NCBI RefSeq assembly: GCF_003334815.1
Contig: NZ_QOWO01000015.1
Reading direction: 5' to 3' (one strand)
DNA from: Escherichia coli
GTDB taxonomy: Bacteria > Pseudomonadota > Gammaproteobacteria > Enterobacterales > Enterobacteriaceae
DNA length: 64,000 bases
The notes below the pieces were generated by a model. That model was not told where the DNA came from, searched no databases, and saw only the letters and a list, made by a program, of their open reading frames with translations. Made by a program: the position numbers and the translations under genes. Within the stretch, counting starts at the first letter, position 1; every line of letters begins with the position of its first letter. Below are positions 51,173 through 51,370 of the stretch, in pieces.

Positions 51173-51179
51173 ATTTTTT

Positions 51180-51330
51180 TCCATCAGATATAGCGTATTG
51201 ATGATAGCCATTTTAAACTATGCGCTTCGTTTTGCAGGTTGATGTTTGTTATCAGCACTGAACGAAAATAAAGCAGTAACCCGCAATGTGTGCGAATTAT
51301 TGGCAAAAGGCAACCACAGGCTGCCTTTTT
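51180..51330 (+). ncRNA. sraB: Candidate SraB small RNA in the yceF-yceD intergenic region; boundaries approximate
   Basis: 198-bp non-coding gap; terminator-like aggctgcctttttc at about 51315-51330; identity rests on the known location of sraB, not on a structure I could verify. Confidence 0.3.
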
Positions 51331-51332
51331 CT

Positions 51333-51361
51333 TTGACTCTATGACGTTACAAAGTTAATAT
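51333..51361 (+). promoter_or_regulatory. Near-consensus sigma-70 promoter immediately upstream of yceD (TTGACT-17 bp-TAATAT)
   Basis: ttgactctatgacgttacaaagttaatat; -10 ends 10 bp before the yceD ATG. Confidence 0.5.
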
Positions 51362-51370
51362 GCGCGCCCT

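Follow-up and report, generated by a model that had tools for sequence, protein, structure and literature searches.

The gap between yceF and yceD very probably holds two tandem transcription units

In Escherichia coli, yceD, the first gene of the yceD-rpmF operon, is separated from its divergent left neighbor yceF by a gap, which we analyzed within a stretch of 64,000 nucleotides (nt) from contig NZ_QOWO01000015.1 (assembly GCF_003334815.1), here called the window. The yceF start codon, read as its complement, occupies 51170-51172 and the yceD ATG lies at 51371, so that the gap spans exactly 51173-51370 (198 bp). Very probably, it contains two tandem units on the plus strand: the small RNA (sRNA) SraB with the promoter yceDp1 (P1), followed by the promoter yceDp2 (P2) with a near-leaderless yceD-rpmF mRNA. 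The first promoter, with the -10 hexamer TAAACT, would fire at 51226 and give rise to a ProQ-binding SraB of ∼109 nt with three hairpins, the last of which ends the RNA at 51305-51334. Read-through of this terminator would generate a yceD-rpmF mRNA with a leader of 145 nt. From the second, sigma-70-dependent promoter, transcription would start at C51368 or C51369, leaving 2 to 3 nt and no Shine-Dalgarno (SD) sequence before the AUG. Near-leaderless yceD would be poorly initiated and rpmF would use its own GAGGAG, so that little YceD and much ribosomal protein L32 could be made from one mRNA. A GC-rich discriminator would render P2 sensitive to growth rate and guanosine tetraphosphate (ppGpp), as in other ribosomal-protein promoters.

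Window coordinates correspond to those of NC_000913.3 minus 1,095,423 and of U00096.2 minus 1,094,646 (valid right of 50863), since position 1146589 of sraB converts to 51166 and the yceD ATG at 1146017 (U00096.2) to 51371. The gap is identical in sequence to that of MG1655, and each of the 5,426 complete E. coli genomes contained the stretch around it. Across species, the gap was compared with 80 species-level genomes, which took in many genera of the Enterobacteriaceae, a single member of the Erwiniaceae, and a few records with odd labels. SraB, its terminator, yceDp1 and yceDp2, and near-leaderless yceD are already known from Rfam (RF00077), RegulonDB, and the literature, and for the locus itself our analysis therefore matters little. 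What it adds is the depth to which a promoter abutting the AUG is conserved, extending across Gammaproteobacteria in the loci compared, and a 56-nt SraB hairpin that is specific to one lineage. A literature search found no report of either.

Transcription from P2 starts 2 to 3 nt upstream of yceD

A promoter scan revealed TTGACT (51333-51338) and TAATAT (51356-51361) on the plus strand, separated by a spacer of 17 bp, inside the 16 to 18 bp called for in a sigma-70 promoter, and matching the consensus at 9 of 12 positions. This is the near-consensus promoter at 51333-51361 that a preliminary description of the window had reported, and it corresponds to yceDp2. As stated there, the -10 hexamer abuts the yceD ATG, although the bases in between (GCGCGCCCT) number nine rather than 10. 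This block (51362-51370) contains the discriminator GCGCGCC (51362-51368). The -35 hexamer overlaps the last two U residues of the SraB terminator tail and thus provides a clean example of a terminator U-tract overlapping the -35 of the next promoter. In 81 sequences, the -35, the -10, the discriminator, CCCT, and the ATG were invariant, and the spacer and the terminator loop were variable.

The literature attributes both yceD promoters, yceDp1 and yceDp2, to Tanaka et al. (1989); the assignment of the hexamers was made by us and by the author of the preliminary description. Among the RegulonDB transcripts with very short leaders listed in PMC5230787 (Table S4), yceD-rpmF appears with the sequence CCTA, promoter P2, and 2 starts. 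Since the gene's first base is counted in this table (for sRNAs it shows a single base, and its P1 range reaches the A of the ATG), P2 starts at C51368 and has the leader CCU. By differential RNA sequencing (dRNA-seq), Romero et al. (Table S2) obtained a 5' end enriched by tobacco acid pyrophosphatase (TAP), FWD_(II)-1146015, which equals C51369 and is flagged as overlapping RegulonDB. Both starts lie 7 to 8 nt past the -10, inside the 6 to 9 nt expected of a primary 5' end, and leave a leader of 2 to 3 nt, in line with the very short leader and the transcription start near 51365-51370 that had been predicted.

Alternatively, TTGACT-17-TAATAT could be a chance match, with all yceD-rpmF transcription arising by read-through from P1. 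The motif alone did not exceed chance, as one site was found in 800 bp versus 0.8 expected from shuffled sequences. In addition, Romero et al. rated the start at 1146015 class II only, a class of starts nested downstream of strong transcription, and recorded no step-up in coverage. A chance match is nonetheless very improbable: a TAP-enriched 5' end lies exactly where the -10 would place it, P2 is recorded in RegulonDB, and hexamers, spacing, and discriminator are invariant across species. The layout is kept even where the surrounding DNA has fully diverged, including distant loci with neither an upstream terminator nor SraB-like sequence. yceDp2 is thus lifted above chance by the Rfam match described below, the mapped starts, and its invariance across species.

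The annotated start of yceD is correct

The gene yceD (51371-51892, plus strand) encodes a DUF177-containing 23S rRNA accumulation protein of 173 amino acids (aa). Within 25 nt upstream of its ATG, neither a 4-mer of AGGAGG nor AAGG was present, which agrees with the earlier statement that no SD sequence is obvious here. In contrast, rpmF is preceded by GAGGAG (51930-51935, plus strand). Fold prediction left the 11 nt at the 5' end of the P2 transcript unpaired. It had also been suggested that the annotated yceD start lies too far upstream. In that case, a downstream in-frame codon would be the true start and the P2 leader would be of normal length, which would account for the missing SD sequence before 51371; the next in-frame Met is codon 49. 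This explanation deserves hardly any credence. Codons 1 to 48 showed the bias of translated sequence, with 11, 12, and 41 of 48 columns variable at the first, second, and third codon positions, respectively (81 sequences), and variation restricted to the third position was seen already at codons 3 and 4. All 80 orthologues matched YceD residues 1 to 173. Moreover, when 1.84 billion representatives were searched, YceD homologues of full length and down to ∼30% identity (total length, ∼170 to 180 aa) mostly aligned residue 1 to residue 1. A start further upstream is not possible because an in-frame TAA (51356-51358) lies inside the -10 hexamer. The annotated start is correct, and the suggestion to move it is effectively refuted.

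AAATTACCCCTG (51383-51394), which covers yceD codons 5 to 8, was invariant in 81 sequences including its synonymous sites, unlike the codons after it, and this may reflect a constraint tied to short-leader initiation. A candidate mini-open reading frame at 51360-51383 (ATGCGCGCCCTATGCAAAAGGTAA, encoding MRALCKR), which runs across the yceD start in another frame, was rejected. It has no SD sequence, it is missing from the P2 transcript, and its frame is not preserved in one distant locus (L090), which has lost the stop; conservation of the promoter at this place accounts for the invariance of the candidate.

SraB ends at an intrinsic terminator and starts near 51226

Rfam SraB (RF00077) matched the plus strand at 51166-51334 with 210.6 bits (E = 1.4e-45; curated gathering score, 130 bits) over the full length of the model (positions 1 to 169). 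The limits of the match coincide with the ends of sraB as annotated (169 nt; NC_000913.3 1146589-1146757; PMC7967276, Table S1), between yceF and yceD and on the yceD strand. The location of SraB upstream of the terminator, as claimed in the preliminary description, is therefore supported, but the annotated start at 51166 falls outside the interval claimed, 7 nt within yceF, and the 5' end supported by data is at ∼51226.

The terminator-like string noted earlier in the 198-bp gap is present as well, at 51318-51331 rather than at about 51315-51330. This string (aggctgcctttttc) comprises the loop end, the 3' arm, and the U-tract of a terminator hairpin on the plus strand, the stem-loop of which spans 51305-51329 and is followed by the U-tract UUUUUCUUU to 51334. 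The arms consist of AAAAGGCA/UGCCUUUU plus CC/GG, with one bulged base between each, and then UCUUU follows to 51334, which is also the annotated end of sraB. For the 41-nt stretch containing the terminator (51300-51340), fold prediction gave -11.2 kcal/mol. Among 56 distinct sequences, 90.5% of cells were paired in a structure made up of the terminator stem and the small hairpin preceding it, compared with at most 53% when partners were slid; for the terminator helix alone, the value was 89%. Four pairs of the upper stem were altered on both sides in a compensatory manner. A simple terminator scan did not call the SraB terminator because its stem carries bulges. By fold and by conservation of pairing, the terminator-like element is the intrinsic terminator of SraB.

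Several data sets place the 5' end of SraB downstream of the annotated one. A reanalysis of two transcription start site (TSS) data sets (PMC7967276) assigned the true start to a position ∼60 nt downstream, at 1146649 (51226), and pointed out that Argaman et al. (2001) had already mentioned a shorter product and that the start in Salmonella is concordant. The dRNA-seq of Romero et al. contains a class I TSS, FWD_(I)-1145872, at 1145872-1145873 (U00096.2), equal to 51226-51227. The yceDp1 leader in RegulonDB (1145872-1146017; PMC5230787, Table S4) begins at the same base as short SraB, so that read-through of the terminator yields a leader of 145 nt. At the annotated start, the promoter scan gave no match of at least 9/12; by eye, TAAAAT combined with 3 of 6 matches at the -35 was found, and this candidate was rejected. 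Because 51166 lacks a good promoter match and because of the dRNA-seq data, 51226 is preferred.

As suggested by its spacing, the -10 of sraB/yceDp1 is TAAACT (51214-51219, plus strand), a weak match to the consensus. It lies in CATTTTAAACT (51209-51219), which was nearly invariant among 69 distinct intergenic sequences. On the minus strand, the same element contains TAAAAT (51215 to 51210), located 7 to 8 nt upstream of a yceF start at 1146625 (51202). With hexamers assigned in this way, CATTTTAAACT resembles the core of a symmetric, bidirectional promoter with overlapping -10 regions. A conserved -10 at this position supports moving the SraB 5' end to ∼51226, as does the finding that, over its 5' third, the annotated RNA is in part the start region of yceF.

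The resulting 109-nt RNA (51226-51334, plus strand) was predicted to fold into three hairpins (-33.1 kcal/mol; z = -2.62). The 5' hairpin belongs to a segment of 56 nt (51220-51275; paired, 51226-51266), and the middle hairpin spans 51274-51302, with an inner stem of CGCA/UGCG at 51282-51285 and 51291-51294. This inner stem was paired in 94.6% of cells among the 56 sequences, and in Dickeya and Ewingella its A-U pair is replaced by U-A. As a ligand of ProQ, SraB is abundant, discrete, and highly enriched with ProQ, and its complex with ProQ has been studied biochemically (PMC5393179). According to published data, ppGpp represses SraB of Salmonella more than 4-fold.

Two minus-strand features were observed within SraB. 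Read on this strand (51299 to 51277), the middle hairpin was called terminator-like, with 9 pairs and the tail CTGCTTTATT, and a minus-strand start of yceF has been reported at 51277.

The promoter-to-AUG layout is conserved beyond the SraB hairpin

In the 80 species-level genomes, CTTTGACT and GTTAATATGCGCGCCCTATG were invariant with fixed spacing. The block from promoter to ATG was also found in Dickeya, Ewingella, and Erwinia. Beyond these, seven further loci kept the layout, with YceD identities listed as 61, 58, 47, 47, 41, 39, 31, and 30%. At such distant loci, TTGAC(T/A), a spacer of 16 to 17 bp, TAnnAT, and 8 to 9 nt of mostly GC-rich sequence precede the ATG. The -10 of L089 is TATCAT, and in L085 automatic scoring set the hexamer a base further on (AATATT; spacer, 18 bp). 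Flanking DNA was otherwise unrelated, and one of the loci adjoins a Dot/Icm gene. Promoter-like matches 8 to 9 nt upstream occurred at only 0.3% of positions in the distant loci. In L088 (CP180022.1, a genome of 1.5 Mb), the sequence upstream of position 701 reads TAGTAT-GCCCT-ATG, with a discriminator 4 nt shorter. With only 5 nt after the -10, transcription would be expected to begin at the A of the AUG itself, and yceD of this genome would be truly leaderless. An apparent homologue of 49% identity, L087 (a Logan contig, SRR27475802), was excluded. It is the E. coli yceD region with essentially every G changed to A, most likely assembled from bisulfite-type reads, which gave rise to a spurious protein cluster representative, P0123.

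We regard it as possible, if somewhat short of probable, that the yceD mRNA is of an ancient and obligatorily near-leaderless housekeeping type, with a strong promoter fixed in place and selection on the promoter-to-AUG distance itself, across YceD identities from 100% down to 30%. If this is true, the fixed distance could hold YceD far below L32 on the shared mRNA, or it could tie synthesis of YceD, which is linked to ribosome assembly, to the status of 70S ribosomes or initiation factors.

In contrast to the promoter block, SraB varied in length. In 72 of the 80 loci, the yceF-yceD intergenic region measured 140 to 143 bp, and the RNA from P1 to the terminator would be ∼50 to 55 nt long. Lengths of 197 to 198 bp were found in five loci only, those of E. 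coli, Escherichia albertii, Salmonella, a Citrobacter sp. (L065), and Intestinirhabdus (L005). The extra 56 nt (51220-51275) are the SraB 5' hairpin, which is placed directly after conserved CATTTTAAACT, and the alignment gap falls exactly there. This position argues that TAAACT (51214-51219) functions as a -10. The sequence of the 5' hairpin diverges greatly among Escherichia, Salmonella, Citrobacter, and Intestinirhabdus, yet its pairing is kept. Three loci of the Cedecea group (L052, L056, and L060) have intergenic regions of 232 to 267 bp and carry another insertion, located between the middle hairpin of SraB and the terminator.

These differences are reflected in the Rfam scores. Among 20 other genera searched at the gathering threshold, only E. 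albertii and Salmonella passed, and the threshold was reached solely within the Escherichia/Salmonella/Citrobacter group. Full-model matches below threshold (39 to 105 bits) were obtained in Intestinirhabdus, Enterobacter, Raoultella, and Erwinia, with 70 to 78 bits in Enterobacter and Raoultella. Elsewhere, the threshold is not reached because the 56-nt hairpin is missing, and not because the element is absent. The conserved SraB core of Enterobacterales would be only ∼50 to 55 nt long, and the form of E. coli and Salmonella would have gained a hairpin of 56 nt.

It follows from the shared start nucleotide of SraB and yceDp1, and from the terminator lying between P1 and yceD, that SraB could primarily be a cis-acting, attenuated leader of yceD-rpmF with condition-dependent read-through instead of a trans-acting sRNA. 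In the 72 species with short gaps, the P1-to-terminator RNA would consist of a small hairpin and the terminator, and no E. coli trans target turned up in the literature searched. Overall, however, this alternative is unlikely, because SraB is a discrete, abundant RNA strongly enriched with ProQ, a phenotype has been reported in Salmonella, P2 frees the operon from read-through, and the sequence offers no evident sensor of a ligand or protein. An sRNA unit followed by an independent P2 unit is the reading we prefer.

Low translation of near-leaderless yceD

Ribosome profiling by Nakahigashi et al. (2014; PMC4378010) showed that yceD is much less translated than rpmF, and the authors call yceD a gene "without 5'-noncoding leader." From this low ribosome density, the mapped P2 starts, and the missing SD sequence, we infer that leaderless-type initiation may cause the low translation of yceD. 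With its layout conserved across Gammaproteobacteria, yceD would be a good native model of short-leader translation in a species in which chromosomal leaderless mRNAs are scarce.

Besides the lack of motif excess and the class II rating of the P2 start, several points weigh against the model proposed at the outset. Without an SD sequence, yceD is leaderless by the definition of Romero et al. (<10 nt) but not by a strict 0-nt definition, and it is absent from the five mRNAs of E. coli that these authors list as leaderless. A leader of 2 to 3 nt is not a true leader of 0 nt, and Krishnan et al. (2010), cited in PMC4378010, report that the nearness of the start codon to the 5' end matters. mRNAs that are strictly leaderless would be expected to resist kasugamycin. 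In the kasugamycin translatome, the resistance value of yceD was 0.4, i.e., more sensitive than average, although this value is not assignable to P2, as the gene has two transcripts. This sensitivity suggests that part of YceD may come from leadered P1 read-through. For stringent control of P2, the evidence is the discriminator sequence, and no direct test of ppGpp or DksA was found in the literature.

The kasugamycin value would fit leadered initiation better, and a 5' extension of 2 to 3 nt would be expected to weaken leaderless initiation. YceD might hence be made mainly from the long-leader P1 mRNA by non-SD initiation, with P2 serving chiefly rpmF and P2-borne yceD almost untranslated. 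This is rather doubtful, since distant gammaproteobacterial loci keep the promoter at the ATG together with an intact yceD but have no recognizable terminator or P1, and since the ribosome density of yceD has been described as low, not as absent.

Upon entry into stationary phase, yceD and rpmF drop together in published data (-2.86 and -2.36, respectively). Considering this decrease and the GC-rich discriminator, we infer that P2 may be under growth-rate and ppGpp control.

Neighboring genes and differences from MG1655

Gene order around the gap is as in E. coli K-12: rluC (49516-50475, plus strand), yceF (50587-51172, minus strand), the gap, yceD, rpmF (51944-52117, plus strand; ribosomal protein L32, cotranscribed with yceD), plsX (52198-53268, plus strand), and fabH (from 53336). 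A palindromic element of the repetitive extragenic palindromic (REP) type lies between rluC and yceF (50507-50579) and scored 54.3 and 53.4 bits on the two strands against Rfam naRNA4 (RF02564), slightly below the gathering score of 59.5.

Within 4.4 kb, three single-base differences from MG1655 were found. In yceF, which encodes a Maf-family 7-methyl-GTP pyrophosphatase, a 1-bp insertion at ∼50863 (GTAATAG versus GTATAG in MG1655) shifts the frame after about residue 103 and splits the gene into open reading frames of 122 and 108 aa. Of the 5,425 complete E. coli genomes that matched, not one had the extra A, and all were 98.4% identical across the probe of 61 nt. The insertion could have arisen as a private mutation, as an error of sequencing, or as an edit. 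A synonymous change in Leu20 of yceF (51113, T versus C) was present in 0 of 3,892 complete genomes matching a 61-nt probe. The third difference (52321, C versus T) places Pro42 instead of Ser42 in PlsX.

Comparison with known systems

Compared with known SraB (RF00077; also pke20 and psrA4; Argaman et al., 2001), the window copy has the same locus and strand, the full-length model match, the 3' terminator, and the MG1655 sequence. No difference was found; it is the copy of E. coli K-12, with the same caveat that the annotated 5' end lies ∼60 nt too far upstream. Likewise, TTGACT-17-TAATAT, 7 to 8 nt upstream of the recorded P2 start, did not differ from the yceD-rpmF promoters in RegulonDB (yceDp1/yceDp2).

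With stringently controlled promoters for rRNA and ribosomal proteins (Travers, 1980; rrnB P1 type), yceDp2 shares GCGCGCC directly after the -10, an operon that encodes a ribosomal protein, and expression that drops upon entry into stationary phase. Unlike many of them, it has -35 and -10 hexamers that are nearer to the consensus. Leaderless mRNAs of E. coli (lambda cI and Tn1721 tetR; chromosomal rhlB, pgpA, dicA, racR, and ymfK) resemble yceD in a leader of <10 nt, the lack of an SD sequence, and a promoter that abuts the start codon. yceD differs from them in its leader of 2 to 3 nt, its place as the first cistron of a ribosomal-protein operon, its second, leadered transcript, and its sensitivity rather than resistance to kasugamycin.

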